Shown: in pieces, positions 7,900-21,562 of the stretch | How positions within the stretch are numbered: the stretch's first letter is position 1 | Layout: each line of letters opens with the position of its first letter | DNA from: Vibrio vulnificus CMCP6 | GTDB taxonomy: Bacteria; Pseudomonadota; Gammaproteobacteria; Enterobacterales; Vibrionaceae | Assembly: GCF_000039765.1 (NCBI RefSeq) | Contig: NC_004460.2 | Location: forward strand, 120,001 to 152,000 | DNA: 32,000 nt | Direction of reading: 5' to 3' | The notes under the pieces: generated by a model | Seen by the model: only the letters and a program-made list of their open reading frames with translations | The model's database searches: none | What the model was told of the DNA's origin: nothing | Made by a program: the position numbers and the translations under genes

Positions 7900-8085
7900 T
7901 TAGTTGTCACTGTCCCAATCAAATTGGGTATCCAGCGCGTTAGGGTCGTCATCAAATGGATGCTCAACACGCCCTCTTAGGCGTTCTAATTTGCTCTCTA
8001 ACATGTTCACGGTGTCATAATCACCTTCAGAACAAGCGACGTAAATTTGTTGCTCCAGAGCTTCGATTCTATCTCGGATACTCAT
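7900..8085 (-). CDS. Small (61 aa) acidic helical protein of unknown function, probably co-transcribed with cti
   Basis: A strong Shine-Dalgarno AAGGAGG lies 6 nt upstream of the ATG. The ORF starts only 26 bp downstream of the cti stop with no hairpin between, and is followed by the strong terminator at 7843-7881. Heptad-like N-terminus IRDRIEALEQQI...LESKLERLRGRV; acidic tail DDDPNALDTQFDWDSDN. Confidence 0.6.
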   Translation of the reverse strand: MSIRDRIEALEQQIYVACSEGDYDTVNMLESKLERLRGRVEHPFDDDPNALDTQFDWDSDN

Positions 8086-8111
8086 GGGAACCTCCTTTAC
8101 GTTAGGTTGTG

Positions 8112-10466
8112 CTATCGGTTCTCAAAACGATTATAGTCAAGCAATCCAAATTCGATAGGTTGATCGTTGCGATACCAAGTATGAACTTTGTCGCTAAACG
8201 ACCAGAAATTGGTTGAGCTACGACGAATCGCAAACTTATCCAATAACTTAACGTAGTCTTGCTCAGATTCCATTGAAGTAATGATTTGAACGAATTCGGC
8301 TACTTGGTTTTCGTTCAACGAGAAGAACGCCGCAGGGTAGCTTCCGACAACGCCGCGCACTATGGTGAGGTCGTCATTCGCTGGGTCACGATTTTTCTCT
8401 TCGTTAAACAAACTTGAGATGTTCAAATGTGCATTGTTGTGCAGCAGTGTATAAAGCTGCTCTTTTCCAGAGTCTGCTTTGACCATCAACATAGTAATTT
8501 GCGGGATAGGCAACAGCTTTTCACCTTTTACCAAATTCAATGACTTCAGCAATGCTTCGTTTTTCAGGCTCATGCCAGTATCGACAATCTCATAGCGCGA
8601 ATTCAGGATTGGGCTTACTTGACGGCGTAATATGTCAAACAGCTCAGACTTGGGATCATCGGTTTTATATACAACGCTAGTCGGTTGGCTAAAGGGCACC
8701 ACATTGCGCTGCAAGAAATCGCTCAGTTGGCGGTTTTGCTGTTGATACCAGCTGGATTGCTCTTGGTGGCGCATATCTGCGGGCAACAAGGCGATGAAGT
8801 TACTTTCACCTTCTAAACGAAGAAAATCCATAAACATGCGAGTGATCAACTGATGGCCAAAGTTGCCATACACATCAAAACCCGCCACTAACAAGTAGTG
8901 GATGCGTTCTAGCAAGGCGTAGTCGAGAACCCAGGCCGTTTTGGGCTTCTCACCCACCAATCCCTGTACCACTGAGGCACTATCAAAGTGACGGAACACG
9001 GTTAACGCGGCATTGGGGTTAGTGCCATTGCCATCCCATATGATGTCGGTGGTGAGATGCGTACCATTTTTAAACCAATGGTTAATGAACTCCGATTTCG
9101 CTTCTAAATAGCGAGCTTGTTGGGCGGAATATTTGACCCAATTGGTGACTGGTAGGGTGTTACTTTCGAGTTCGCCCGGTAGTTTTAGATTATCGGCTTG
9201 TGAGCGATAAAACTCATTAACTGCAGGAAGATCCGCTTTGTCAGGATCGAGGAAGAAAACCCAGAAACGATCGTTAATCACATTCAGCGCCAACTGGCCG
9301 CGGCACACTGGTCCCTTTATGTAAGCCATAATGGTGTTTTGTGCGTTATCTAGCATGAATTTAAAGCGTGCTTTCACTGGGAGGTCAATAAAAGCGCTCA
9401 TTGGGTTGGCGGCAATCTCAGGATCGTAACTTGGCAACTGCTCGACGACGTAATCTGCGTCAATAAACCACGCTTTCCAATCCTTCATTCGCTGGCTATT
9501 GAGAGCAAAAGGCATGTGTGTCTTATCAACAATCGTGCCTTGCTCGGGAATGATTCGATAGTAAACACGTTCTACACCCGGATCATCGTAGGGGCGACGA
9601 GTAACAATGCGCTGTACGGGTTCGCCTGGTGGGGTGGACGAACGAACCATAGTAAAGAAGCGAGGTTCCCCCTCTAACTCAGAGAAATAGAGATGCGATA
9701 AAAAAAGATGCTCGTAGATATAACGTGCAGCAAGCTGGTTTTTGCGTGAACTCTTATTGAACATTTGTTCGTATCGCGTGATCTCTGCTGCCTGCTCACG
9801 AGTGAGCGGGAGGTGATCGTTCATGATCGCGCCATTTTCTAACCAAGCCATGAGTGTTTGGTGTTCTTTGGCCGAAAGATTTGGCATACCAAAGGGCATT
9901 CCCCAGCTTGGATTGGTACGCTCGTACTGATCAAATTCTTCAATCGTCGGACAGGTTTGTTCGCGATCAATCGAAAAATCAAATCCTTCAAGTTGGTCCT
10001 GTTGAGGAAGGGGATGACGCTCCTTCTGTTGCAGCAATCTCGCAATCAAGCCGGCATCAATGTTGGCAACACCGGTTTGGGCACGCTCGTTGAGCACAGG
10101 ATGAAAGCCCGCATCACGCCACTCTTGGGTGGTTTGTGCATCTTCAAATAAGCGTGTGGGTGCTGTGGCTGTGAGACGAGTCCCTTGATAAACAAGCGTC
10201 TTGCTTGCGCCACGGTCAATACCTTCTACAGAAGAGAGTTTGAGTTGACATGGCGCGTCGTAGAGCGTGTGACAAACCACACATCGGTTTTCGATGATGG
10301 GCTTGACATCGTGCATAAAAAACGCACTTTGAGCCGATTGAATGTGCGCGGTCCGGTCGCGGACTTCGGCCTCGCCAAACAGCTGATCATAGTTGAGCCC
10401 AGCATAGGTGGCACAACCTGCAAAAAGTGTGACTACTGCTAGTATTAGAAATGTTCTAAATTTCAT
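8112..10466 (-). CDS. cti: Fatty acid cis/trans isomerase (cytochrome c-type, periplasmic)
   Basis: 784 aa. The N-terminal signal ends in the lipobox-like LFAGC. There is a single haem c motif in the context RCVVCHTLYDAPCQLKLSS. Size and N-terminal haem site match the Pseudomonas/Vibrio Cti family as I recall it. Confidence 0.8.
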   Translation of the reverse strand: MKFRTFLILAVVTLFAGCATYAGLNYDQLFGEAEVRDRTAHIQSAQSAFFMHDVKPIIENRCVVCHTLYDAPCQLKLSSVEGIDRGASKTLVYQGTRLTATAPTRLFEDAQTTQEWRDAGFHPVLNERAQTGVANIDAGLIARLLQQKERHPLPQQDQLEGFDFSIDREQTCPTIEEFDQYERTNPSWGMPFGMPNLSAKEHQTLMAWLENGAIMNDHLPLTREQAAEITRYEQMFNKSSRKNQLAARYIYEHLFLSHLYFSELEGEPRFFTMVRSSTPPGEPVQRIVTRRPYDDPGVERVYYRIIPEQGTIVDKTHMPFALNSQRMKDWKAWFIDADYVVEQLPSYDPEIAANPMSAFIDLPVKARFKFMLDNAQNTIMAYIKGPVCRGQLALNVINDRFWVFFLDPDKADLPAVNEFYRSQADNLKLPGELESNTLPVTNWVKYSAQQARYLEAKSEFINHWFKNGTHLTTDIIWDGNGTNPNAALTVFRHFDSASVVQGLVGEKPKTAWVLDYALLERIHYLLVAGFDVYGNFGHQLITRMFMDFLRLEGESNFIALLPADMRHQEQSSWYQQQNRQLSDFLQRNVVPFSQPTSVVYKTDDPKSELFDILRRQVSPILNSRYEIVDTGMSLKNEALLKSLNLVKGEKLLPIPQITMLMVKADSGKEQLYTLLHNNAHLNISSLFNEEKNRDPANDDLTIVRGVVGSYPAAFFSLNENQVAEFVQIITSMESEQDYVKLLDKFAIRRSSTNFWSFSDKVHTWYRNDQPIEFGLLDYNRFENR

Positions 10467-11072
10467 TTGGTTAATCGTCTAAATAAGCCATAGTGTTTAT
10501 TATACTCAAATAACGGTGAGATGCTTGGCCGCCCGACAAGTTTAAGATATCGACGTTATTTGGGTAGAAGGTGCAGAAGAATAGCGCTTTCAATAATAAA
10601 ACACCATGCAAAATCAAGATTGTGATTGCCCTCTAGCTGAGCATTGCTTAAGGCTGAGATGGCAGATAGGTTTTTTTGATTAGCTCACGCTTCTGACTTA
10701 TTGGGCTATCTCGCTACACGTTTTGTGTTAAATGTTTTATAGAGAGATATTGGAGTGGTTTCACTTGAAAACACAGTTTTTGCTAATGATGCTGATTTTT
10801 TGACCGGCAAACGATGCTCGGTTATTCAATAGTTTTCGTAATGTAACTGGTTGTTTCTTGATGCCATTACTGTCAGCAGGAGCAAAATTGAGCGATAAAA
10901 TTATGTAATTAGCTCAAAAGTGTGATTTGGTTTAGACTTTGAAAACAATATTCTCAACAGGATTGATATACAATGATTTTTCAGGAGATCGTTTCTAATA
11001 ATTAGCAGAGCTCTTGAGCTTCTTCTCAAGTACGGATTTGTCGCGGTACTAGAAGGAAGGTTTGTTTAGATT

Positions 11073-11096
11073 AACGAGATGCTTATCTCGTTTTGC
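11073..11096 (+). promoter_or_regulatory. Terminator-like hairpin in the 5' leader of the first PEGA gene
   Basis: Sequence is AACGAGAT-gctt-ATCTCGTT-TTGC, an 8-bp perfect stem with a short T-run, ~40 nt upstream of ATG 11132. A second hairpin, CTTGAG-cttctt-CTCAAG, lies at 11013-11030. Confidence 0.3.
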
Positions 11097-11131
11097 ACGT
11101 ACAGAATGTAACGTTATTTGAGCAGGGAACT

Positions 11132-12229
11132 ATGAACATACGTCCAATCCCAGCGCTTTTGCTTGCGCTAAGTTTTCCATGGGCATCTTCTGTGTTGGCA
11201 GAAGAGGTGAATCAGGCCGATCCAGTTGCCGCCGTTGATGAAAAAATCGATGCAAAACAACAAGAGATCAAAGCAGTAGAAGAGCAATACAGCGAAGAAA
11301 GCGGTCAACTGAAAGGGTTGAAAGGCGACAACGCTCGTTTGCAGCGAGAAGCCGAAGAGCTGGAAGCGAAACGTAACCGAGCGAAATCTGCTCTTGATAA
11401 GCAGTATGCTCGTTTACTGGAAGACCCAGATACTGACCTTGTTTCTTTCCAGAAAAAATACCAAGAGTCTTGGGAAGCGTTGAAACAGAATCAAAACGAA
11501 AAGCTCAAGAGTGATCAAAGTATCGTAGAAAGCGAATCTCGTTTATCTCAGCTAAAACAGAAGCTGGCACGCTTAAACAGTGAATACACGAATTTACAAG
11601 AGTCTCACGTTGAAGCGCGTGTAAAACGTTTGGAAGCTGAGCTTCGCGAAAGCGCGGTACTAGAAACACGTTACACGACGACTTGTTCATCAACGATGAC
11701 GATTGGCGAGTGTATTAGCCAAGGCAAATATCTCACCAAGCAAAAAGCCGTAAACACTTTTAAAGATAAACTTTTGTCAGGCTTGACGGAATCGGTGTTG
11801 GCGAAGCAAAACTTGCAAGGTGTTCAGTTAAATATCCACGTTCAAGAGAGTCAAACGATTGAAAGTGGCTTCTCAGGCAATGGTGCGTATAGCACGAGTA
11901 TTCAGGCTCAGCTTCAAGCAAAACCAGAAGCAACGGCAGCATGTAAACTACTTTCTGTATCAAGCCGCTACTGTTTATCAGCGAGCAGTAACTCATCAAA
12001 GCAAGAGAAAAAAGATTGGGTCACAGTAACGGTAAGATCGGATCAGTACAATGATGCGGTGACGATCAATGGCGTTAGCTACGGAAGTACGCCAGTCGAA
12101 TTGCTCTTGCCTAAAGGCAAGCATCGTTTTACGGTGTCGAAACCGGGCTACGAAACGTATAATCGTGAGATTTATGTCGGCTCGACCGATACCGTTTGGG
12201 TCAAGTTGGTTGAAGATAAGCAGGGGTAA
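11132..12229 (+). CDS. Secreted coiled-coil protein with a 4-Cys middle domain and a C-terminal PEGA domain (paralog 1)
   Basis: Start moved to ATG 11132 (AGGGAA Shine-Dalgarno), giving the signal peptide MNIRPIPALLLALSFPWASSVLA. About 150 aa of charged heptad-rich sequence follows. Then come Cys motifs TTCSSTMTIGEC and CKLLSVSSRYC, and a PEGA-like C-terminus VTVRSDQYNDAVTINGVSYGSTPVELLLPKGKHRFTVSKPGYETY. Confidence 0.75.
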   Translation: MNIRPIPALLLALSFPWASSVLAEEVNQADPVAAVDEKIDAKQQEIKAVEEQYSEESGQLKGLKGDNARLQREAEELEAKRNRAKSALDKQYARLLEDPDTDLVSFQKKYQESWEALKQNQNEKLKSDQSIVESESRLSQLKQKLARLNSEYTNLQESHVEARVKRLEAELRESAVLETRYTTTCSSTMTIGECISQGKYLTKQKAVNTFKDKLLSGLTESVLAKQNLQGVQLNIHVQESQTIESGFSGNGAYSTSIQAQLQAKPEATAACKLLSVSSRYCLSASSNSSKQEKKDWVTVTVRSDQYNDAVTINGVSYGSTPVELLLPKGKHRFTVSKPGYETYNREIYVGSTDTVWVKLVEDKQG

Positions 12230-12250
12230 CCCTGCTTTCGCATTTTTATT
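12220..12250 (+). terminator. Weak hairpin overlapping the stop codon of paralog 1 (possible partial terminator or attenuator between the paralogs)
   Basis: Sequence is GCAGGG-gtaa-CCCTGC followed by TTTCGCATTTTTATTT. The loop contains the TAA stop (12227-12229). The stem is only 6 bp. Confidence 0.35.
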
Positions 12251-12307
12251 TAAACGCCATTTTTCGATAATTTGGCATGTTCCCTAAGTTTTAATGAAGT
12301 ATTTATC

Positions 12308-14119
12308 ATGCGTTTAGTTTTTTCTGCACTTACACTTGCCATGCTGCCTGTTGTTGCTGGAATTCCTGCGATGGCGGAAGAAGCAAGCCCTGTGGTGGTT
12401 GTTGATGACGCTTTGTTCACCCAAAACACGTTGCTTAGCGATACGGAAAAGAAGAAATCGGCTAAACAGAATCAGTTGAATAACCAAGCAGAGCAGCTTG
12501 AGCGATTGAAACAACAAGAGGCTGAACTTGTTACGCGACTCGATAAGGCGAAGCAACAGCTTGAGAAAGATTATCAACGTTTAAGTGATACGCCTGATTT
12601 TGATTTGATGCCCGCTCAGAGTGCCTATCAGTCCGCTTGGTCTAAGGTCAAGCAGAATCAAAGCGAGCAGCTCGAAGCGCGTCAAACGCATGAAACACTC
12701 GCAAGCGAATTGGCTGCGATTAACGCAGAAGAAACGGTGATTCGTGGCAAAATTGCACAGCTTCAAGAAGAACGTCAACGTGCTCGTATTGCGACCATGC
12801 GCAGTGAAATCAGCCAGAAAGGGGATCTCACCGTATCGTTCACCAATACTTGTCGTAGCGATATGACACTTGAACAATGTGCGAAACAAACAACGACCTT
12901 AGCGCTGCAAAAAGCGGTTCGTCAGTACCAAAGCGAACTGATCGACGGAACAACCGAAGCCAAATTGGCCAAACAGAATCAATCGCAAGCCGCTCTGAAT
13001 ATCCATGTATTGAAGCACCAGTCGTCGAAAGCTGAGTTTTCAGGTGAGAATCAATACACGCAAATTCTTAAGGTTTCTTTAAACACTCGACCTGCTGAAA
13101 ATGCGCCGTGCAAGCTGCTGAACATTGATTCGAAATACTGTTTTTCTCCAAGTCAGGTCGTCGACGGTGAAAAAGTGACCGAAACCGCTTGGCATACGCT
13201 GACCATTCGTTCCAATCAATATGGTGATACCGTTTTGATTGATGGGGTGAAGTATGGCTCAACCCCTGTTGAGATTATGCTGCCGATGGGCAATCACCAG
13301 ATCAGCATTGAGAAAGAAGGCTACAGTACCTTCCGTACCGATCTGATGGTTAGTCAAGACCAAACGCTGAGAGCAAATCTAGTGGCGAAACGCAATGTGG
13401 CCAAAACGGGTGAGACGTTTGCGGATAACTTAGGCTCGTTACCAGCACCTGAAATGGCGGTCGTGACAGAAGGCACTTATATGATAGGTGAGCGTGCGGG
13501 TAAGCAAGTTCGCTTGAATCGCGGATTTTCGATAAGTACAACGCCGATTACGGTTGCTCAGTTCCGTGCTTTTGTTGACCAAAGTAACTATCAGACAGAT
13601 GCTGAATTACACAAAATCTGTACTCGTATCGAACAAGCGACGATCACACCTATTGCCAACAAATACTGGCGTGATCCTGGTTTCAGCCAGCAAGAAAACT
13701 CTCCGGTTGTCTGTGTCAGTCAAAATGACGCGAACGCCTACGTTAACTGGCTATCCGACAAAACAGGCTACCATTACCGATTGCCTACCGAAGACGAATG
13801 GGAGATCGCAGCGAGAGCGGGATCGGAAGCCGATTATTGGTGGGGCGAGAAGTTTGGTTCGGGCCAAGCTAATACAGGGTGGGGGGGAACTCCTTGGTCA
13901 AATAACAGCACTTCTCCAGTGAAGTCATTTAGTGCCAATGGCTTTGGCCTCTATGATGTGGTTGGTAACGTCTGGGAGTGGACCGCAGACAGCAAAGGCT
14001 TGTTAAAAGGCGGTGCTTGGAGCTTCTCTCCTGAAAAAGCAAAAGCGGAATCGCAGTTGTTTATTTCTCCTGATTCTGCAGCAAACTTTGCAGGATTCCG
14101 AGTTGTCAGAGTACTGTAA
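12308..14119 (+). CDS. Secreted coiled-coil / 4-Cys / PEGA protein fused to a C-terminal FGE-sulfatase (SUMF1/DUF323)-like domain (paralog 2)
   Basis: Start moved to ATG 12308, giving the signal peptide MRLVFSALTLAMLPVVAGIPAMA. It is collinear with paralog 1 (shared LAKQN, LNIHV, FSG-N-Y, CKLL, YC, RS-QY-D-V-I-GV-YGSTPVE). It has an extra ~220-aa C-terminus with FGE-family motifs: PVVCVSQNDANAYVNWL, YRLPTEDEWEIAARAG, NGFGLYDVVGNVWEWT, KGGAW, GFRVVR. Confidence 0.8.
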   Translation: MRLVFSALTLAMLPVVAGIPAMAEEASPVVVVDDALFTQNTLLSDTEKKKSAKQNQLNNQAEQLERLKQQEAELVTRLDKAKQQLEKDYQRLSDTPDFDLMPAQSAYQSAWSKVKQNQSEQLEARQTHETLASELAAINAEETVIRGKIAQLQEERQRARIATMRSEISQKGDLTVSFTNTCRSDMTLEQCAKQTTTLALQKAVRQYQSELIDGTTEAKLAKQNQSQAALNIHVLKHQSSKAEFSGENQYTQILKVSLNTRPAENAPCKLLNIDSKYCFSPSQVVDGEKVTETAWHTLTIRSNQYGDTVLIDGVKYGSTPVEIMLPMGNHQISIEKEGYSTFRTDLMVSQDQTLRANLVAKRNVAKTGETFADNLGSLPAPEMAVVTEGTYMIGERAGKQVRLNRGFSISTTPITVAQFRAFVDQSNYQTDAELHKICTRIEQATITPIANKYWRDPGFSQQENSPVVCVSQNDANAYVNWLSDKTGYHYRLPTEDEWEIAARAGSEADYWWGEKFGSGQANTGWGGTPWSNNSTSPVKSFSANGFGLYDVVGNVWEWTADSKGLLKGGAWSFSPEKAKAESQLFISPDSAANFAGFRVVRVL

Positions 14120-14137
14120 GCATCAGTAAGTAATGCG

Positions 14138-14168
14138 AATGGCGAGCCAATCGGCTCGCCATTTTATT
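14138..14168 (+). terminator. Rho-independent terminator after paralog 2
   Basis: Sequence is AATGGCGAGCC-aatc-GGCTCGCCATT followed by TTATTTA. The stem is GC-rich, 8-11 bp. Confidence 0.8.
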
Positions 14169-14214
14169 TATCAATATGGTTATTTTTAAATACAGTTATT
14201 TTCAAAATAGGGGA

Positions 14215-14415
14215 GTTAGCATAAGCAAATGAGCGTGACCTTATGCTACTTACTTGGTAGGCATAGCCACTTATCCCCTTCCTACTAGAAGCTGCTACGG
14301 TGTTGGCTGCATTCGTTCACTGCTCGCCAACCCGGCCTAATCACATAGCGTATCTATGCTCATGAGGACTCACTCATTTGCCGCCGACCTGCAACGCCAA
14401 GTTGTTTGGGTATAG
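14215..14415. repeat. ERIC-like (enterobacterial repetitive intergenic consensus family) imperfect-palindrome element, possibly with an extra partial copy at its left side
   Basis: The core, ~14271-14414, runs TATCCCC...GCTGCATTCGTTCAC...CTATGCTCATGAGGACTCACTCATTTGCCGCCGACCTGCAAC...GGGTATA. It aligns by eye with the ERIC consensus GCTGCGTTCGCTCAC...ATGTAAGCTCCTGGGGATTCACTCGCTTGCCGCC..CTGCAAC. The termini TATCCCC/GGGTATA are inverted. It is non-coding, and the ERIC1R primer region is recognisable. Confidence 0.55.
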
Positions 14416-14435
14416 CGATAGCAATGTCGACATGT

Positions 14436-14993
14436 TTATTCAGATTGTTGCGGCAGTTTGTGCGCGATTCCCGCATGACAATCAATACACGATTTCTCTC
14501 TTTCCTCCATGGTTTGATGCCGACGAGCAACCGTTCGATCTTGCGCAGTGAAATCCATCATCTCAACACTATGACAGTAGCGGCACTGCTGTGATTTGTT
14601 TGCCACAAATTCGTTGGTTACTTTTTCAAACAGTCTAGGTCGGTGCTCTGTCTCAAAGTTGTCCAGAGTGATGTCGCCCGACAACTTGTGAAAGATATCC
14701 GCAGTCGCCATGATTTTTAACTTGAGCTTAGGCAGCAATTCACGAGGGACATGGCAATCACTGCACGTTGCCGCAATCACACCTTTGGCGTTCTTGAAAT
14801 GAACGGACTCTTGGTATTCTTCGACAATAGTATCCATCCCAATATGGCAGCCAAAACAAAACGCATTGCTGTTGGTGAACGTCATACCCCAATGAAAGCC
14901 GCTCATGGCTATGGCACCAATAACAAAAGCCAAAACGCCTCCAAGTGGAACGCCTAACCACCATTTGTTGCGAGGTTTATCCCATAAGCTCAT
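14436..14993 (-). CDS. cymA: NapC/NirT/CymA-family membrane-anchored tetrahaem quinol dehydrogenase
   Basis: 185 aa. N-terminal TM anchor WWLGVPLGGVLAFVIGAIAMSGF. Four CXXCH motifs (CFGCH, CSDCH, CRYCH, CIDCH). Shine-Dalgarno GGGAG. It lies 26 bp downstream of the dihaem gene. There are no napAB or torZ neighbours; instead it is adjacent to mtrCAB. Confidence 0.8.
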   Translation of the reverse strand: MSLWDKPRNKWWLGVPLGGVLAFVIGAIAMSGFHWGMTFTNSNAFCFGCHIGMDTIVEEYQESVHFKNAKGVIAATCSDCHVPRELLPKLKLKIMATADIFHKLSGDITLDNFETEHRPRLFEKVTNEFVANKSQQCRYCHSVEMMDFTAQDRTVARRHQTMEEREKSCIDCHAGIAHKLPQQSE

Positions 14994-15019
14994 AAGACCA
15001 CTCCCTGATATAAACGTAT

Positions 15020-15643
15020 TTATTGGAAGCTTGCATAATATTCAACAAGTGCTTGTCGCTCTTCTTGAGATAAGGCTTTAATCGCTTTATCCATTTTCTT
15101 ATCTGCTGAACGTTTGCCTTGATGAAATTGCGTTAAGGTGGTTATCAAATAGCCTTTTTGTTGGCCAGCCAAAATGGACGCTTCATCAAGAGGATCGCTT
15201 CCACCATCGGCATGACAGCTTTCGCAACTTTTTAGGTGAATGGCTTTACCTTGGTTTGCCAGTGCTTGATCAAAAGGTTGCTTTGCGCGAACAAACTCCA
15301 TATCAGCGTAGTAGGCCGCCAGTTGTTCTATTTCCTCTTCTGTTAAAGAACGAACGATGGTTGCCATGTCTCCGGATTGACTGATATCTCCCGACACGTG
15401 TTGGACGGTATTGGCGGGGCGACCTTCTAGGTAACGTAGCATTTGGTCGCTGAGATTGAACTCAGGAATGCCCGCAATGGTGGGGATATCAGTGTGCCCA
15501 CTCACGCCATTTGCCCCATGGCATGCATCGCATTGTTTCTCGCTAACGAGGGCTTGCGTGCTAGCGAAAGCTGATCCAATTGAAGCGATAACCAGAGCAA
15601 TGGTACAGAAGATGTTGTTTAAAGTAGATTTTTTATCAAGCAT
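15020..15643 (-). CDS. pdsA: Periplasmic dihaem cytochrome c (c4-like); candidate PdsA-type periplasmic shuttle
   Basis: 207 aa. Signal peptide IALVIASIGSAFA. Two CXXCH motifs (CDACH, CESCH), one in each of two c-type repeats. It is the first gene of a two-gene operon with cymA and is divergent from mtrCAB. The pdsA name is a context-based inference. Confidence 0.6.
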   Translation of the reverse strand: MLDKKSTLNNIFCTIALVIASIGSAFASTQALVSEKQCDACHGANGVSGHTDIPTIAGIPEFNLSDQMLRYLEGRPANTVQHVSGDISQSGDMATIVRSLTEEEIEQLAAYYADMEFVRAKQPFDQALANQGKAIHLKSCESCHADGGSDPLDEASILAGQQKGYLITTLTQFHQGKRSADKKMDKAIKALSQEERQALVEYYASFQ

Positions 15644-15884
15644 AGCGTGACGTTCCTATAATTAAATAGTGCAGTGATACTTTCTAAAGTTAGTTGGCTT
15701 TCTAATTTGATAGTAATACATTATTTGAAATCTGCTCGATCTCTTTGATATTTTTGTTTGTTGTGCTAAGGAATTGAATTCGTGATTCGTTTGGATTCGT
15801 TATTGAGCTATTTTGGTATGGAATATTATTGGGTGTATAGCTTTATTTAATCTCGTTAATATCTAAATTATGACGGTGGTTTGG

Positions 15885-15898
15885 ATGATCTAAATCAA
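15885..15898. promoter_or_regulatory. Candidate FNR/CRP-family half-site palindrome in the pdsA<>mtrC control region
   Basis: aTGATctaaATCAA matches TTGAT-N4-ATCAA at 9/10 positions. A weaker site, TTGATagtaATACA, lies at 15707-15720, ~70 bp upstream of the pdsA ATG. The AT-rich background makes chance matches likely. Confidence 0.2.
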
Positions 15899-16339
15899 TT
15901 AAATGTCGTTTTTTCTCTATTCCATTTCTATGGAAATAGAAAAGATGCTTGAATTAAATGAGACTTGATATCACTTGTTGATTATGTGATTCTATTTATC
16001 TAATTGATTTAATTGCATTTTAGTTTTGTAGTTTAATTCTTAAATATTTCAAGTTCAAATGTGTGCCTTATGTCTCAAAAGTGAAATGCTATTATGTAAG
16101 TCATGTTGAATTTCTTGTCTGATAGTTGGAAAGTAATTGATAAATATAAAAATACAGATGTATTCACTCCGATAAAATATAATTTATTACGAGTTGTTTT
16201 GACTGAATCCTTCCTTTTTATGAGCTCATTACGATGGGGTGTTTTGACGGGAAATCTGGAAAAACTCCACTACAATTACGTAAAGTATAAAGCAACAACT
16301 CCAACATACAGAAGATTAATAGGAATAAGGGATAATCCT

Positions 16340-18544
16340 ATGATTATATTAAGAGCGATGTTGGCCTCTGTACTCAGTATTTTACTGATTGCTTGTGGAC
16401 CAGAAAGTGGTAACGATCAAAATACGCCGCCGCCCCAGCTTGGGAAAGACTTTACGGTCAGAGTGGCTACCCCTCAACTCGTGGTACCTGATGGGGCTAG
16501 TGAAACCAAGCTTGTGGTTGATTTTGAAGTGTTTGATGCATCAGGCCGCGCCTATGAATTCGATGCGACGAAAGATTTTCGTATCGCGGTGCTTAAAGCA
16601 ATGCCTCAAAGAAGCGGCGGTGGGCGAGATGGCAATACGTTTTGGAAGAGCTTCCACCATTCTAGTAATGACGCAACCAATCGAGCGAGCATGGAAAATG
16701 TTTGGACAGCGGGGGGAGAGTTGCTCAAAACAGATAGTGGCTACACTTATACCTTTGCGATTGCAGACATTCTGAATGTTGCCGACCCTTACCCCACTGA
16801 CTCAGCAGATAATGGTGGCATGATCGCGTGGGATGAAGACAAGTTGCATCGTATTGTGATGGCGTATGGTGACCAAGAGCTAGGATTTACCTATGTGTAC
16901 CAGTGGATTCCTGGAACACCATCCGATCAAACGGTTTCTCGCAATGTCATTGAAGAAGAGACTTGCTCTAACTGCCATATGGGTGAACCACTACATCATG
17001 GTCCTGGGTATCGTTCCATTGATAACAACATCGCGGTTTGTACGTCTTGCCACAATGACAGTAATCCCGGTGCCGCCCCACGTCGTCGACCACTGGCCGC
17101 CATCGTGCATCAGTATCACGGAAATGTGTATGCCCTCGGCTCAAGTTCAAGCGATCCGACAACCTACAAACAGCCAGTCGATAGCAATGGTGTTTTGGTT
17201 ACGGACATCAATGGATTGGTGATGGAAGGCAATCCATTTCCACAAGACGCGCGTAACTGCACGACTTGTCACTCGCAAGATGTGACAAAAGCGTCAGATG
17301 CGAACAACTGGTTTGAACATCCTAGCCAAGTGGCGTGTGAGTCTTGTCATTTGTACAGAGACAGAGGCGCACACGACAATGAAGTCGGTTTTACCTGGGA
17401 TAGAGAAACCTGCACAGGTTGCCATCGCCCTTATGAGCGAGATGAAAACGGTGACCCAATTATTGGTATGGATGCCAGCCGAAGCGCTCGCACTGTGCAT
17501 CTAGGCCGTTTGGATAACTTAGCGGCAGCACGGGATACGTTGCTTGTCAGTATTAAGCAGGCGCGCTTTGTGGATTCCATGTTTGAAGTTGATGTCATCA
17601 TTCAGAAAGATGGCGTTGGCATTAGCGCGCTTAGTGAAATCACGCCATTTATTAACGAGCATGGTCATGTCAACTTACTGCTCAATTGGGATAACGGTGA
17701 AGGCCCAATGCTGGCAAATAACGGTTTGGATCTCTCTACCTGTACCGCACAAGGCAATGGCTTGTTCACTTGCCAGAAAGACTTCACTGGCGCGACGCTT
17801 TTGCCAACTGCAACGTCGACGTTGACGGTGAATGTGGCCGATATGCCGCTGTGTGCCGACCGAACAACAGGTGAGTTGGCGGATTGCTCGACATTCACTG
17901 GCATTGATAATTTGAAATACCCTTATGTGATTGCTGCTAAGAACGCAAAAGGAACGTTTGATGTGGGCGGTATCACAACACCGCATACCTTACCTGTTGG
18001 TGCAGAGGTAACGTCTTGCAACAATTGTCACAAAGAGCTCACCATTCACAAATTGGGTGCTCATCCACACGCAGCAACGGATTTGCAGCAGTGTAAAAAT
18101 TGCCACAATTCAGAGCGCTCTGCGTACTACGCAGGCATGGCCGCGGATCTCAAATATCATGTTCATTCATTCCATGCCTTCGGCTCTGCGCATGTAGGTG
18201 AATCTGTCTTCCCTGGTGCGATTAACAACTGCGAAGCGTGCCATGGTTCAGGACAATACAACTTACCAAGCCAGAAAAATACACGACCTTCGCTGGCCAG
18301 TGGAAAATACTTCAGCCCCGCATTAGTAGCGTGTGGAGCGTGTCATATTGAATCGCCTTTGGCCAATGCCGATCCTGATACGATTCCTGGTGATGCCGTG
18401 CTCGATCATATGATCAAAAACGGGGCCGTGTTTGCCGCGGATACCGCTGTGGAAGCAACGGGTAAAGAACAGTGCGCAACGTGTCACGCCATTGGTCAGG
18501 AGCAAGGCGTAGATAAAGTCCATAAAGTGTACGAATACCGTTAA
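16340..18544 (+). CDS. mtrC: Outer-membrane decahaem c-type cytochrome lipoprotein, MtrC/OmcA family
   Basis: I trimmed the track ORF (from 16103) to ATG 16340 (Shine-Dalgarno AGGAATAAGGGA). The signal MIILRAMLASVLSILLIAC ends in a lipobox. Ten CXXCH motifs fall in two groups of five (CSNCH, CTSCH, CTTCH, CESCH, CTGCH / CNNCH, CKNCH, CEACH, CGACH, CATCH) separated by a ~190-aa Cys-pair-containing region. This matches the MtrC/OmcA four-domain layout. Confidence 0.8.
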   Translation: MIILRAMLASVLSILLIACGPESGNDQNTPPPQLGKDFTVRVATPQLVVPDGASETKLVVDFEVFDASGRAYEFDATKDFRIAVLKAMPQRSGGGRDGNTFWKSFHHSSNDATNRASMENVWTAGGELLKTDSGYTYTFAIADILNVADPYPTDSADNGGMIAWDEDKLHRIVMAYGDQELGFTYVYQWIPGTPSDQTVSRNVIEEETCSNCHMGEPLHHGPGYRSIDNNIAVCTSCHNDSNPGAAPRRRPLAAIVHQYHGNVYALGSSSSDPTTYKQPVDSNGVLVTDINGLVMEGNPFPQDARNCTTCHSQDVTKASDANNWFEHPSQVACESCHLYRDRGAHDNEVGFTWDRETCTGCHRPYERDENGDPIIGMDASRSARTVHLGRLDNLAAARDTLLVSIKQARFVDSMFEVDVIIQKDGVGISALSEITPFINEHGHVNLLLNWDNGEGPMLANNGLDLSTCTAQGNGLFTCQKDFTGATLLPTATSTLTVNVADMPLCADRTTGELADCSTFTGIDNLKYPYVIAAKNAKGTFDVGGITTPHTLPVGAEVTSCNNCHKELTIHKLGAHPHAATDLQQCKNCHNSERSAYYAGMAADLKYHVHSFHAFGSAHVGESVFPGAINNCEACHGSGQYNLPSQKNTRPSLASGKYFSPALVACGACHIESPLANADPDTIPGDAVLDHMIKNGAVFAADTAVEATGKEQCATCHAIGQEQGVDKVHKVYEYR

Positions 18545-18548
18545 CTGA

Positions 18549-18575
18549 GTGGTCCGGGAGAGCCTTCCGGACCAC
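18549..18575 (+). other. GC-rich intercistronic stem-loop between mtrC and mtrA
   Basis: Sequence is GTGGTCCGG-gagagcctt-CCGGACCAC, a perfect 9-bp stem beginning 5 nt after the mtrC stop. No T-run follows. The mtrA Shine-Dalgarno and ATG lie ~20 nt downstream. Confidence 0.5.
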
Positions 18576-18597
18576 GGTTGAGCAATAGGAAAATCTT

Positions 18598-19569
18598 ATG
18601 AAAACAACGATTCAGTGGTGGTTCGTGACGATAGTGATGGCGCTTGGTCTCTCTTCAAATTTGAGCGCCGAAGAGAGCTCTACGCAGCCTGTGGTCGATT
18701 CTCGTGAAGCGATTGAAGCAATATTGGATCAGAAGTTTAGTGACGGAAAGTATTCACGACGTGGCCCTGATGGCTGTTTACGCTGCCATGATGACGATTC
18801 AGAGTTACCCGCAACGGGAATTTTCGACAATATTCATGGTAAGTCGGCCAATATTCATGGGCCAATGAGCGACAAACAGTGTGAAGCGTGCCATGGCCCG
18901 GCAAACAATCATGAACGTAACCCTCGCAAAGGTGAAATGCGTGAACCCATGATTACCTTTGGCCCTATGTCTCCAGTGCCGTCAGAAAAGCAAAACAGTG
19001 TGTGCTTATCTTGTCATACCGACTCGAGTCGCTCAGCGTGGCACAGTAGCGAACATGCCTTTGAGGATCTCTCTTGTTCGAGTTGCCATAAATTGCATGA
19101 GAAAGACGACCCTATGATGGTGGCCGAAAAACAAGTGGAAACCTGTACTAACTGCCATGCAAAAACAAAGTCTGATCTGCATAAACGCAGTAGTCATCCG
19201 ATTCTCAACGGTTCGCTGGAGTGTTCGAGTTGTCATGATCCCCATCAAACCGTCAATGAGTACAGCTTGAAGCAAACCACCATTAATGAAACCTGTTTGG
19301 ATTGCCACTCAGAAAAACGTGGCCCATTCTTGTGGGAGCATGAACCCGTCACAGAAGACTGTTCTAACTGCCACAATCCACACGGGGCGGTCAATCAGGC
19401 GTTATTGATTAAACGGCTTCCGCAACTTTGTCAGGATTGCCATAGCGTGCCGCACGCTAATGTTGAGATACCGGAAAATGATCTCAAGGTGAGGGGAGGC
19501 AGTTGTTTGAACTGCCACAATCAAGTGCACGGAACCAATCATCCGCGCGGCATGTCATTAAGAAACTAG
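18598..19569 (+). CDS. mtrA: Periplasmic decahaem c-type cytochrome, MtrA/DmsE family
   Basis: 323 aa. Signal peptide VMALGLSSNLSA. Ten CXXCH motifs (CLRCH, CEACH, CLSCH, CSSCH, CTNCH, CSSCH, CLDCH, CSNCH, CQDCH, CLNCH). Size and haem density are typical of MtrA. Confidence 0.9.
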   Translation: MKTTIQWWFVTIVMALGLSSNLSAEESSTQPVVDSREAIEAILDQKFSDGKYSRRGPDGCLRCHDDDSELPATGIFDNIHGKSANIHGPMSDKQCEACHGPANNHERNPRKGEMREPMITFGPMSPVPSEKQNSVCLSCHTDSSRSAWHSSEHAFEDLSCSSCHKLHEKDDPMMVAEKQVETCTNCHAKTKSDLHKRSSHPILNGSLECSSCHDPHQTVNEYSLKQTTINETCLDCHSEKRGPFLWEHEPVTEDCSNCHNPHGAVNQALLIKRLPQLCQDCHSVPHANVEIPENDLKVRGGSCLNCHNQVHGTNHPRGMSLRN

Positions 19570-19579
19570 GGAGGGTGTC

Positions 19580-21562
19580 ATGAACGTATCACCTTTGTGG
19601 GCCGCCATTGTTGCCGCTCTCGCTATTCCCGCGCTCGCTGATGACTACGCCTTACAACAGGCGAGTGAGGCAGACACCAGTCGCTGGAGTTGTGAACCGT
19701 GTGAAAGTGACGGCAAGTGGATTGGGGAAATCAGTTTTGGGCTGGGATACCAAAACAACGACGGCGCATCTCGGTTTAATAACTGGGTCCCACCAATTTG
19801 GAGTTCCAATGATCCCGGAAAAGGCGTGGGTAGCAGCTTCAACACCGATCTATCGAGATACGACGAAGATGGGTTTTACAGCAAGCTGAAAATTGAAGAT
19901 CTAGGGTTAAAACGGTTTTTAATGCAACTCGATGTGGGCCAGTATGATGGCCTACGCTTCCAAGGGCGTTATCGAGAATCGCCATACTATTGGAATGGAG
20001 CATTACTCAGCACCTACAGTGGCGAAAACAACGTACAGACGGCGGGTGAGTTAGCCACTTTTGAGAAAGGTGTGAAAAGAGAAACACTGAATCTCTCGCT
20101 TGCGCTCACGCCACATTCTCCTTGGAAACCGCATGTCGCCGTTCAACATGAAAGAAAAAAAGGCACAGTGACGGCTTATACCTCCTCAATACCTGCCTAT
20201 GGCAATGTACCGGGATATCTTCCGAAGGTGGTGGACTATGAAACACTGAATACCGCTGCGGGGCTTAGCTACATTGAAGAGAAGTGGAATGCGGACATTT
20301 CTTATCAAGGCGCATTCTTTCGTCAGAAATACAGCGCCCTTTACTACGGTGAGCAAGCGAATCCGTATGCCAATCAACTGGCGTATGAGCCGGAAAACGA
20401 TTTTCATCAATTGTCACTTTCGGGAAATTACCAGCTAGAAGAGCAAAGTCTTAACGGACGCCTGCTTTTGTCACGTGCTACCTCAGAGGGGGGCATGAAT
20501 CCATTTCCTCAGTCTCCGGTCACAACGGATAGTTTCCACGGGCGAGTGGATACGGTTCAGATCGATGCGAACTATCACAATCGTTTGAGTCGTTCTACCT
20601 CGCTTAAGCTAGGGTTAGATTATCGTGATCGCGATGATCGCTCCGATCGCCAAGTGGTGATTGGTCAAACGCGTAAAGAATACGATAGGAATGTATTTAA
20701 GTTTGACGCGAAGTTGGGCCATCGTTATTCCCGCTCGTTACGCTTGAATGCGGGCTATGAGTATCGGGCAGACAAGCGCCAATACGCAGTGCGTGAAGAA
20801 ACCAATGAGCATACCTTCTATCTAGGTACCGTGTATCGCCCTGAAGCCGATTGGCGAATGGGCGGAAAACTCTCGTATCAAACACGTGATGGTTCCAAAT
20901 GGACGCAAACCTCTGCTGATGCCCCCCATCTACGTCAATTTTACCTCGCAGATCGTGAGCGTTTGGAACTGCGTGGCGATGCCAGTTACGATCTTGCCGA
21001 TAACGCACAATTTACCGCTATCGCGTGGTTGGCTGATGATCGGTATCCGCAACCTGATATCGGTCGCAGTGAAGGGCAGGATTACGGCTATGATCTCGGC
21101 GTCAGCTTTTATCTTGAAGATGACACCACGGGTCATCTCTTTTTCAATCAACAATTTATTCGCTTTGAACAGCAGCACGCCAACAGCGCAGCACCGGGTT
21201 GGAATCGCTACGAAACAGAGACAAAAGACAGTGTGACCACAGTGGGATTTGGTTTTAAACGGCAGAACTTGTTAGAGAAAAAACTCAGCTTGTCGTTGGA
21301 CTATAGCTACAACCATGGTCGTGGACAAACCAACACCATAGGAGCAGGCTACAGCTATCCAGATGTAGACTCGGTGACGCATCGCCTCGAATTTATAAGT
21401 GATTATCGCGTGGCGGAAAACCAAAGTGTGCTATTAAATCTGCGTTTTGAAGACTTCAATGAGGCGGATTATCTGTTCGATGCGGAAACGGCCAATATGG
21501 GGCGCGTTGAACAAGATTATAATGGCTTCTTCGCGATGCTTTCATGGGAGTTTCGTCACTAA
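19580..21562 (+). CDS. mtrB: MtrB/PioB-family outer-membrane beta-barrel sheath for MtrA/MtrC
   Basis: 660 aa. Shine-Dalgarno GGAGGG. Signal peptide AALAIPALA. N-terminal CXXC (SCEPCES) as in Shewanella MtrB. Alternating aromatic/polar beta-strand pattern rich in Y/R/D/N. It starts 10 bp after the mtrA stop. Confidence 0.85.
   Translation: MNVSPLWAAIVAALAIPALADDYALQQASEADTSRWSCEPCESDGKWIGEISFGLGYQNNDGASRFNNWVPPIWSSNDPGKGVGSSFNTDLSRYDEDGFYSKLKIEDLGLKRFLMQLDVGQYDGLRFQGRYRESPYYWNGALLSTYSGENNVQTAGELATFEKGVKRETLNLSLALTPHSPWKPHVAVQHERKKGTVTAYTSSIPAYGNVPGYLPKVVDYETLNTAAGLSYIEEKWNADISYQGAFFRQKYSALYYGEQANPYANQLAYEPENDFHQLSLSGNYQLEEQSLNGRLLLSRATSEGGMNPFPQSPVTTDSFHGRVDTVQIDANYHNRLSRSTSLKLGLDYRDRDDRSDRQVVIGQTRKEYDRNVFKFDAKLGHRYSRSLRLNAGYEYRADKRQYAVREETNEHTFYLGTVYRPEADWRMGGKLSYQTRDGSKWTQTSADAPHLRQFYLADRERLELRGDASYDLADNAQFTAIAWLADDRYPQPDIGRSEGQDYGYDLGVSFYLEDDTTGHLFFNQQFIRFEQQHANSAAPGWNRYETETKDSVTTVGFGFKRQNLLEKKLSLSLDYSYNHGRGQTNTIGAGYSYPDVDSVTHRLEFISDYRVAENQSVLLNLRFEDFNEADYLFDAETANMGRVEQDYNGFFAMLSWEFRH

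Follow-up and report, generated by a model that had tools for sequence, protein, structure and literature searches.

Within a window of 32,000 nucleotides of Vibrio vulnificus CMCP6 (assembly GCF_000039765.1, contig NC_004460.2, positions 120,001 to 152,000 of the forward strand; coordinates below count from the first letter of this stretch), we analyzed two adjacent genes, here called gene A and gene B. They very probably, at about 93%, represent crvA and crvB of V. vulnificus, orthologues of the gene pair that makes up the Vibrio curvature module ("periskeleton"). An earlier reading of the DNA from its letters and open reading frames (ORFs) alone, referred to as the original prediction, had proposed the pair as an undescribed envelope system. 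The genes and the protein domains discussed below are as follows, FGE standing for formylglycine-generating enzyme.

11132-12229, + strand: crvA orthologue (gene A), 365 aa from ATG, matching VC_A1075
11132-11200, + strand: Sec-type signal peptide of CrvA, residues 1-23, VLA/EE cleavage-type site
11222-11644, + strand: helical rod of CrvA, modelled helices 31-95 and 103-171, turn EDPDTDL
11651-11980, + strand: middle alpha/beta domain of CrvA, invariant C185, C194, C271 and C281
12017-12211, + strand: PEGA beta-sandwich domain of CrvA, residues 296-360, Pfam PF08308
12308-14119, + strand: crvB orthologue (gene B), 603 aa from ATG
12308-12376, + strand: signal peptide of CrvB, residues 1-23, AMA/EE site
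12392-13384, + strand: N-terminal part of CrvB collinear with CrvA, modelled helices 29-94 and 101-168, four-cysteine domain (C182, C191, C268, C278), PEGA domain 295-359
13448-14110, + strand: CrvB-specific (CBS) domain, FGE-sulfatase fold without the catalytic cysteine pair

Two tandem genes orthologous to crvA and crvB

Gene B starts 78 bp past the stop codon of gene A, and both are on the forward strand in the ORF list. Their proteins share 36% identity over 357 aa (BLASTP, E = 5e-71), far above chance, and gene B carries about 240 C-terminal residues beyond the part collinear with gene A. By exact sequence look-up, the V. cholerae protein at positions 7920-9056 of the corresponding locus (L042) is "hypothetical protein VC_A1075 [V. 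cholerae N16961]", and a V. cholerae cell-shape paper states that crvA is VCA1075. The gene A protein is 67% identical to VC_A1075 over 350 aa (E = 6e-168), and the gene B protein matches, along its entire length and with 52% identity, the product of the next gene downstream of VC_A1075 in V. cholerae. Because of these two identities and an arrangement of the genes as published, we assign genes A and B to crvA and crvB. The two proteins also sort cleanly into the two subfamilies: the gene A protein is 59-94% identical to A-like proteins and 32-37% identical to genuine B-like proteins, and the gene B protein is 36-81% identical to B-like and 34-39% identical to A-like proteins.

One genome per species was scanned for the pair, which gave 80 Vibrio loci, and the flanking ORFs were clustered. 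Gene A was followed by gene B on the same strand in 79 of these loci, the exception (L069) being a short contig that ends just past gene A. The co-occurrence of the pair across genomes, which the original prediction had put forward as a check, was thus borne out.

Public annotations are inconsistent about the start of crvB, giving either 615 aa from an alternative TTG at 12272 or 603 aa from the ATG at 12308. We favour the ATG, judging by the N-termini of orthologues and the geometry of the signal peptide. The gene B protein has the same sequence as AAO07103.1 / WP_011081112.1 from V. vulnificus CMCP6. Both families are generically named in the databases: the exact gene A sequence is called "PEGA domain-containing protein [Vibrio vulnificus]" and the gene B family "SUMF1/EgtB/PvdO family nonheme iron enzyme".

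The second gene of the module was described in V. cholerae as a larger, homologous gene downstream of crvA and named crvB (Martin et al., bioRxiv 10.1101/2020.02.20.954503; later Nat Microbiol 2021). In Table S2 of that preprint, the row for V. vulnificus CMCP6 gives NC_004460.2, genes 3238 and 3239, and CrvA WP_011081111.1, and the columns for CrvA and CrvB accessions are filled for this strain, for YJ016 and for further V. vulnificus strains. The CrvAB pair of V. vulnificus is therefore already known and catalogued, and by sequence its orthology to a characterized system is clear, so the idea of an undescribed envelope system does not hold. Most other parts of the original prediction stood: the genes are adjacent, same-strand, collinear paralogues, both proteins bear Sec signal peptides, four conserved cysteines and a PEGA domain, and an FGE/SUMF1-like domain occurs in the second protein only. 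Its picture of two periplasmic proteins with a structural or scaffolding role, which may assemble together, with the FGE-like part as an accessory module, matches what has been published for CrvA and CrvB of V. cholerae.

Published functions and the mechanism proposed for V. vulnificus

V. cholerae cells become straight when either crvA or crvB is deleted, and neither gene complements the loss of the other (bioRxiv 10.1101/2020.02.20.954503). According to the same preprint, CrvA and CrvB co-localize in a single periplasmic filament at the cell's inner curve; CrvB requires CrvA for its assembly, and CrvB in turn promotes higher-order assembly of CrvA via its CBS domain, a C-terminal region of ~250 aa that is required for curvature and is functional when fused to CrvA. 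The two genes together suffice to curve Escherichia coli, Pseudomonas aeruginosa, Caulobacter crescentus and Agrobacterium tumefaciens, independently of MreB and FtsZ, and CrvB accompanies CrvA in almost every Vibrio (bioRxiv 10.1101/2020.02.20.954503). In other papers on V. cholerae, CrvA is described as a periplasmic intermediate-filament-like protein that changes the rates of peptidoglycan insertion, the filament is thought to exert mechanical force on the envelope, and the loss of crvA is stated to lower virulence and migration in soft agar.

We infer that in V. vulnificus the pair serves the same function as CrvA and CrvB in V. cholerae, and it is highly probable, given the orthology, that the mechanism is the same. 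Both proteins would be exported by the Sec pathway to the periplasm, where CrvA would form the core polymer and CrvB would be unable to assemble without it. CrvB would promote long, higher-order filaments and would need its extra C-terminal domain of ~240 aa to do so. Together the two proteins would build a single filament along the side of the cell that is to become its inner curve, and this filament would alter peptidoglycan insertion and/or exert mechanical force on the envelope, so that the rod grows curved.

Signal peptides

Judged by sequence rules, each N-terminus combines a single basic residue with a hydrophobic core and has a cleavage-type site at residue 23 (VLA/EE in CrvA and AMA/EE in CrvB). 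The core of CrvA reaches a 10-residue hydropathy of 2.37 and is followed by a -3/-1 site, the cores of both proteins being ~2.4, and the same rules found no lipobox cysteine in the N-terminus of CrvA or CrvB. Residues 1-27 of CrvA had low pLDDT in the AlphaFold2 model. The periplasmic location of CrvA and CrvB has been shown experimentally in V. cholerae (bioRxiv 10.1101/2020.02.20.954503).

A two-helix rod

AlphaFold2 monomer models were built from alignments of 24 orthologues for each protein, with mean pLDDT of 84.9 for CrvA and 74.8 for CrvB. In both models the N-terminal part consists of two long, uninterrupted helices with pLDDT > 90 (residues 31-95 and 103-171 in CrvA, 29-94 and 101-168 in CrvB), followed in the same order by a mixed alpha/beta domain with four cysteines and a PEGA sandwich. 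The rod is modelled as an antiparallel helical hairpin. Its turn reads EDPDTDL in CrvA and DTPDFDL in CrvB, and orthologues of both the A-like and the B-like type conserve the motif, with P99 and D102 of CrvA invariant.

The original prediction had described this region as ~150 aa of charged, heptad-like sequence. The two long helices in each protein agree with that description, but a hydrophobic periodicity of 3.5 residues was found in the first helix only. In a crude shuffle test, the fraction of shuffles reaching the observed power was 0.0235 for the first helix of CrvA and 0.0035 for that of CrvB, and the second helix of neither protein was significant in the same crude test. Since periodicity supports the first helix only, we refrain from calling the rod as a whole a canonical coiled coil. 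Local Foldseek matches of the rod included the iSH2 region of PI3K p85 (rmsd 1.9-2.0 Å, 132-134 columns) and the arm of Smc5/6, both of which are antiparallel two-helix coiled coils. The models suggest that the rod of CrvA and CrvB is an intramolecular antiparallel hairpin, and a monomer model is compatible with an intermolecular arrangement too.

The four-cysteine domain and the PEGA domain

In the AlphaFold2 model, the middle domain of CrvA comprises strands at residues 174-184, 235-248 and 252-263 and a helix at 191-216. Its four cysteines are invariant, with a spacing of 9/77/10 in every orthologue examined (78 A-like and 42 B-like), and they fall into a CX8C and a CX9C pair. These two pairs probably form disulfides. 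For the four-cysteine domain of CrvA, Pfam gave nothing above the curated cut-off, and the PDB offered no match in sequence or fold.

The PEGA domain (PF08308) that follows scored well above the gathering cut-off of 20.8 in both proteins (E = 4.1e-20 and 71.9 bits in CrvA, E = 1.6e-20 and 73.2 bits in CrvB). In CrvA it also gave a local Foldseek match with carboxypeptidase regulatory-type beta-sandwiches. A literature search joining CrvA with PEGA found nothing relevant.

The CrvB-specific domain lacks the catalytic cysteines of FGEs

The C-terminal domain that sets CrvB apart matched the Pfam family FGE-sulfatase (PF03781) at residues 381-601 with E = 3.4e-50, a match found in protein B only. 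The closest solved sequences were PvdO (5hha, E = 4.7e-21) and pFGE/SUMF2 (1y4j, E = 1.7e-20), and the structures of FGE, PvdO and pFGE were matched by Foldseek with E of about 1e-10. These matches, together with the database name of a nonheme iron enzyme, would be expected if protein B were an active FGE/EgtB/PvdO enzyme, either sulfatase-maturing or a PvdO-like oxidoreductase, with the rod and the PEGA domain only positioning it. The catalytic, copper-binding cysteine pair of FGEs lies in the C-terminal segment past the GNVWEW motif, and titles of PDB entries among the FGE fold matches name human C336S and C341S mutants. However, the 45-48 residues past GNVWEW are free of cysteine in 41 of the 42 CrvB orthologues, V. 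vulnificus CrvB reading KGGAWSFSPEKAKAESQLF there, and the only invariant cysteines within the CBS domain, C438 and C469, are both upstream of the motif. To our knowledge, PvdO and pFGE/SUMF2, the best sequence matches, likewise lack the catalytic pair. All NCBIfam enzyme equivalogs scored far under their cut-offs for CrvB (e.g., PvdO, 101.6 bits versus 500). The published restoration of curvature by a CBS domain fused to CrvA fits a role in assembly.

An active enzyme is therefore a highly improbable reading of protein B. The absence of the catalytic cysteines makes it very unlikely that the CBS domain is a formylglycine-generating enzyme, and the maturation role that the original prediction had allowed for the FGE-like domain is unlikely. 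The domain is more plausibly a non-catalytic assembly or binding module, which fits the genetics.

Genomic context and alternative readings of the locus

The neighbours of crvAB in the window are on the opposite strand. Upstream lies cti, set apart by a long spacer.

8112-10466, - strand: cti, upstream neighbour of crvA, encoding the membrane-stress enzyme Cti

Downstream of crvB, the window contains a complete cluster of the MtrCAB type for extracellular electron transfer (EET) at 14436-21562. Its genes encode a NapC/NirT (CymA-like) tetrahaem cytochrome, a dihaem c4-type cytochrome, an 813-aa MtrC/OmcA-like outer-membrane cytochrome, an MtrA-like decahaem protein and an MtrB porin.

The placement of the pair between cti and the cymA-like, c4 and mtrCAB-like genes had been called suggestive in the original prediction, and it is what favours reading the pair as an undescribed envelope scaffold tied to Cti and/or the EET cytochromes. 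The other Vibrio loci do not bear this out. An AraC-type regulator, adjoining putA and putP, lies upstream in 71 of the 80 loci and pdxH lies downstream in 68, whereas cti adjoins crvAB in only three (V. floridensis, V. rotiferianus and Vibrio sp. WZ-1), and none of the 80 has mtrC, mtrA, mtrB or cymA next to the pair. In the window itself, the neighbours are divergent or convergent to crvAB and are separated from it by 665 bp upstream and by a strong terminator-like hairpin past crvB. The published function of crvAB is moreover autonomous, even in E. coli. A scaffold tied to Cti or the Mtr cytochromes is thus extremely improbable, and the position of crvAB next to these genes is incidental and has no conserved meaning.

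The same unusual context bears on the assignment to a curvature module, since true orthologues could have drifted in V. vulnificus to another role or to none, the relocated locus no longer setting curvature. Several points weigh against our assignment. In V. vulnificus, torS-cti replaces araC-putA on one side of the pair, and vqmR, vqmA and pdxH are missing from the other. Because this context differs from that of most Vibrio, the regulation of crvAB may differ as well. The accession WP_011081111.1 in Table S2 is tied to the gene A sequence only by its adjacent accession number and the same genome. A literature search found no experiment on crvAB of V. vulnificus, and for this reason the function is taken here from orthology. 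A drifted role would also fit the lack, described below, of the inverted repeat that is conserved between crvA and crvB in most Vibrio. On the other hand, both ORFs are intact and keep the family-invariant residues, including the four cysteines of CrvA and the six of CrvB, and their identity to other Vibrio orthologues is typical of the family. Identical copies occur in a very large number of V. vulnificus assemblies (about 1000 contigs for gene A, 333 cluster members for gene B), and descriptions of the species give its shape as a curved rod. We consider a drifted role very improbable, and retain the assignment of genes A and B to a crvAB curvature module.

Two alternative contexts of crvAB can be distinguished, namely torS-cti-crvAB in V. 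vulnificus, V. floridensis, V. rotiferianus and Vibrio sp. WZ-1, and putA-araC-crvAB-(vqmR-vqmA)-pdxH in most Vibrio. The commoner context pointed to the part of V. cholerae chromosome 2 in which crvA lies. The V. cholerae locus has VqmR (Rfam, 181.9 bits) and a PAS-LuxR regulator past crvB, consistent with the VCA1075-1079 region. The species with the cti context have the highest CrvA identity to the V. vulnificus copy (70-94%), which suggests that the two-gene module was relocated or transferred.

The intergenic region between the divergent cti and crvA genes (10467-11131) is AT-rich and, at 665 bp, unusually long. It gave no Rfam match, and a simple scan found no promoter-like site in it. 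VadR and c-di-GMP are known regulators of crvA in V. cholerae, and the region therefore probably holds regulatory sites.

Non-coding elements around the pair

Four elements outside or at the ends of the coding sequences were recorded.

12218-12237, + strand: terminator-like hairpin over the crvA stop codon, then a T-rich tail (consensus scan; RNAfold -15.3 kcal/mol)
12255-12290: degenerate copy of the intergenic inverted repeat in V. vulnificus (V. cholerae copy at L042 9109-9165)
14137-14164, + strand: strong intrinsic-terminator-like hairpin past crvB, 12-bp stem with 7 GC pairs, then a T-run (consensus scan)
14276-14415, - strand: sub-threshold match to V_AS5 (Vibrio antisense RNA), Rfam 57.7 bits versus a gathering score of 96, E = 4e-11

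The hairpin at 12218-12237 is shared with V. floridensis (L001) and is not conserved across other Vibrio; we rejected it as a feature of the family, as it does not extend beyond the V. vulnificus clade. Within this clade it could set the ratio of CrvA to CrvB expression, with CrvA in excess.

Most Vibrio carry a long inverted repeat in the crvA-crvB intergenic region (AAAACGCCATTTTGTCAyTAAGT...ACTTCwGACAAAATGGCGTTTT), preceded by a conserved TTCACAAAGmTG and followed by CGTTTAGAAT. This repeat is largely lost in V. vulnificus and matched no Rfam family. It may be a crvA terminator or attenuator combined with a crvB promoter, or a protein-binding palindrome.

An Rfam scan of 10000-16200 gave nothing above gathering scores. 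Its sole notable hit, the sub-threshold V_AS5 match, falls outside the genes, in the stretch from the crvB terminator to the cymA-like gene.

Homologues beyond Vibrio

The crv proteins have been described as restricted to Vibrionaceae/Vibrionales, with "closest homologs" from outside used as the outgroup (bioRxiv 10.1101/2020.02.20.954503). When 1.84 billion representative proteins were searched with a profile, 69 of them matched at E <= 1e-30; many of these were multi-PEGA proteins matching the PEGA part only, and a few dozen matched the full profile. Ferrimonas aestuarii (L081 6001-7392) encodes a CrvA-like singleton with 33% identity over 377 aa, in which the four cysteines are aligned, and no CrvB-type neighbour was found at its locus. 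Aliidiomarina maris (P0460) has a 624-aa protein with PEGA and FGE domains that is CrvY/CrvB-like, CrvY being the single-gene counterpart in Aliivibrio fischeri discussed below. A Chromatiales metagenome-assembled genome (P0465) has a further homologue outside Vibrionales. These proteins probably belong to the "closest homologs" outgroup of the preprint.

Implications for filament architecture

CrvAB is a periplasmic, nucleotide-independent polymer that curves cells. To what has been published, the present analysis adds an FGE-fold domain without catalytic cysteines, a predicted hairpin rod, an invariant cysteine spacing, homologues in Ferrimonas and Aliidiomarina, and two alternative chromosomal contexts of the locus. 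These additions are modest and could guide structural work on the assembly of the filament.

Taken jointly, the models raise the tentative idea, to which we give somewhat less than even odds, of a filament built from three parts: a hairpin rod closed by an (E/D)(D/E)P(D/E)xD(L/I) turn, a previously unclassified alpha/beta cap locked by two invariant cysteine pairs (CX8C and CX9C), and a CBS domain acting as a catalytically dead, FGE/C-type-lectin-like module for lateral assembly or for binding to the wall or outer membrane. Such an architecture, which draws on AlphaFold2 monomers and conservation, could differ from the "intermediate-filament-like" picture. Neither the hairpin rod nor the cysteine cap nor the role of a dead-FGE CBS domain is stated in the accessible CrvAB literature.

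Comparison with known systems

The V. vulnificus pair most resembles CrvA and CrvB of V. cholerae, with which it shares the tandem arrangement, gene order, strand, domain plan and signal peptides, as well as an extra domain of ~240-250 aa on the second protein. It differs in its surroundings, crvAB of V. cholerae lying between araC-putA and vqmR-vqmA-pdxH, whereas the V. vulnificus pair lies between torS-cti and the cymA-like and mtr genes. Its crvA-crvB intergenic region is also shorter and has its own terminator-like hairpin.

CrvY of A. fischeri (VF_A0834) has the rod, the four-cysteine domain, the PEGA domain and the FGE-like (CBS) domain, and on its own it can curve V. cholerae delta-crvAB (bioRxiv 10.1101/2020.02.20.954503). 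Unlike the duplicated and specialized A and B genes of V. vulnificus, it is a single gene.

Crescentin (CreS) of Caulobacter crescentus, an intermediate-filament-like determinant of curvature, is likewise a polymer rich in coiled coils that lies at the inner curve and biases growth of the wall, and CrvAB has been published as able to curve a C. crescentus delta-creS strain. However, crescentin is cytoplasmic, whereas CrvA and CrvB have signal peptides and are periplasmic, and the CrvA model is a helical hairpin with globular domains rather than a long parallel rod. We found no real sequence homology to crescentin, the Pfam family Rod_CreS scoring 21.4 bits against a cut-off of 100.

Two further comparisons concern the CBS domain. 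It has the fold of the FGE/SUMF1, pFGE/SUMF2 and PvdO family (PF03781), but lacks the catalytic pair of FGEs and is fused to a filament-forming protein, and the genetics point to a role in assembly. PorK, an FGE-fold lipoprotein, is one of the structural proteins that build a large oligomeric ring in the periplasm. Like CrvB, PorK/GldK of the type IX secretion system (T9SS) places an FGE-sulfatase fold in the Gram-negative periplasm, and the CBS domain matched PorK (9mzu/9ots) with E = 8e-10. NCBIfam GldK matched CrvB with E = 2.7e-15, but at 56.6 bits versus a family cut-off of 350, and CrvB differs in having no lipobox, no T9SS context and another N-terminal architecture. The PorK/GldK ring offers a possible parallel in which the FGE fold is used structurally and without catalysis.

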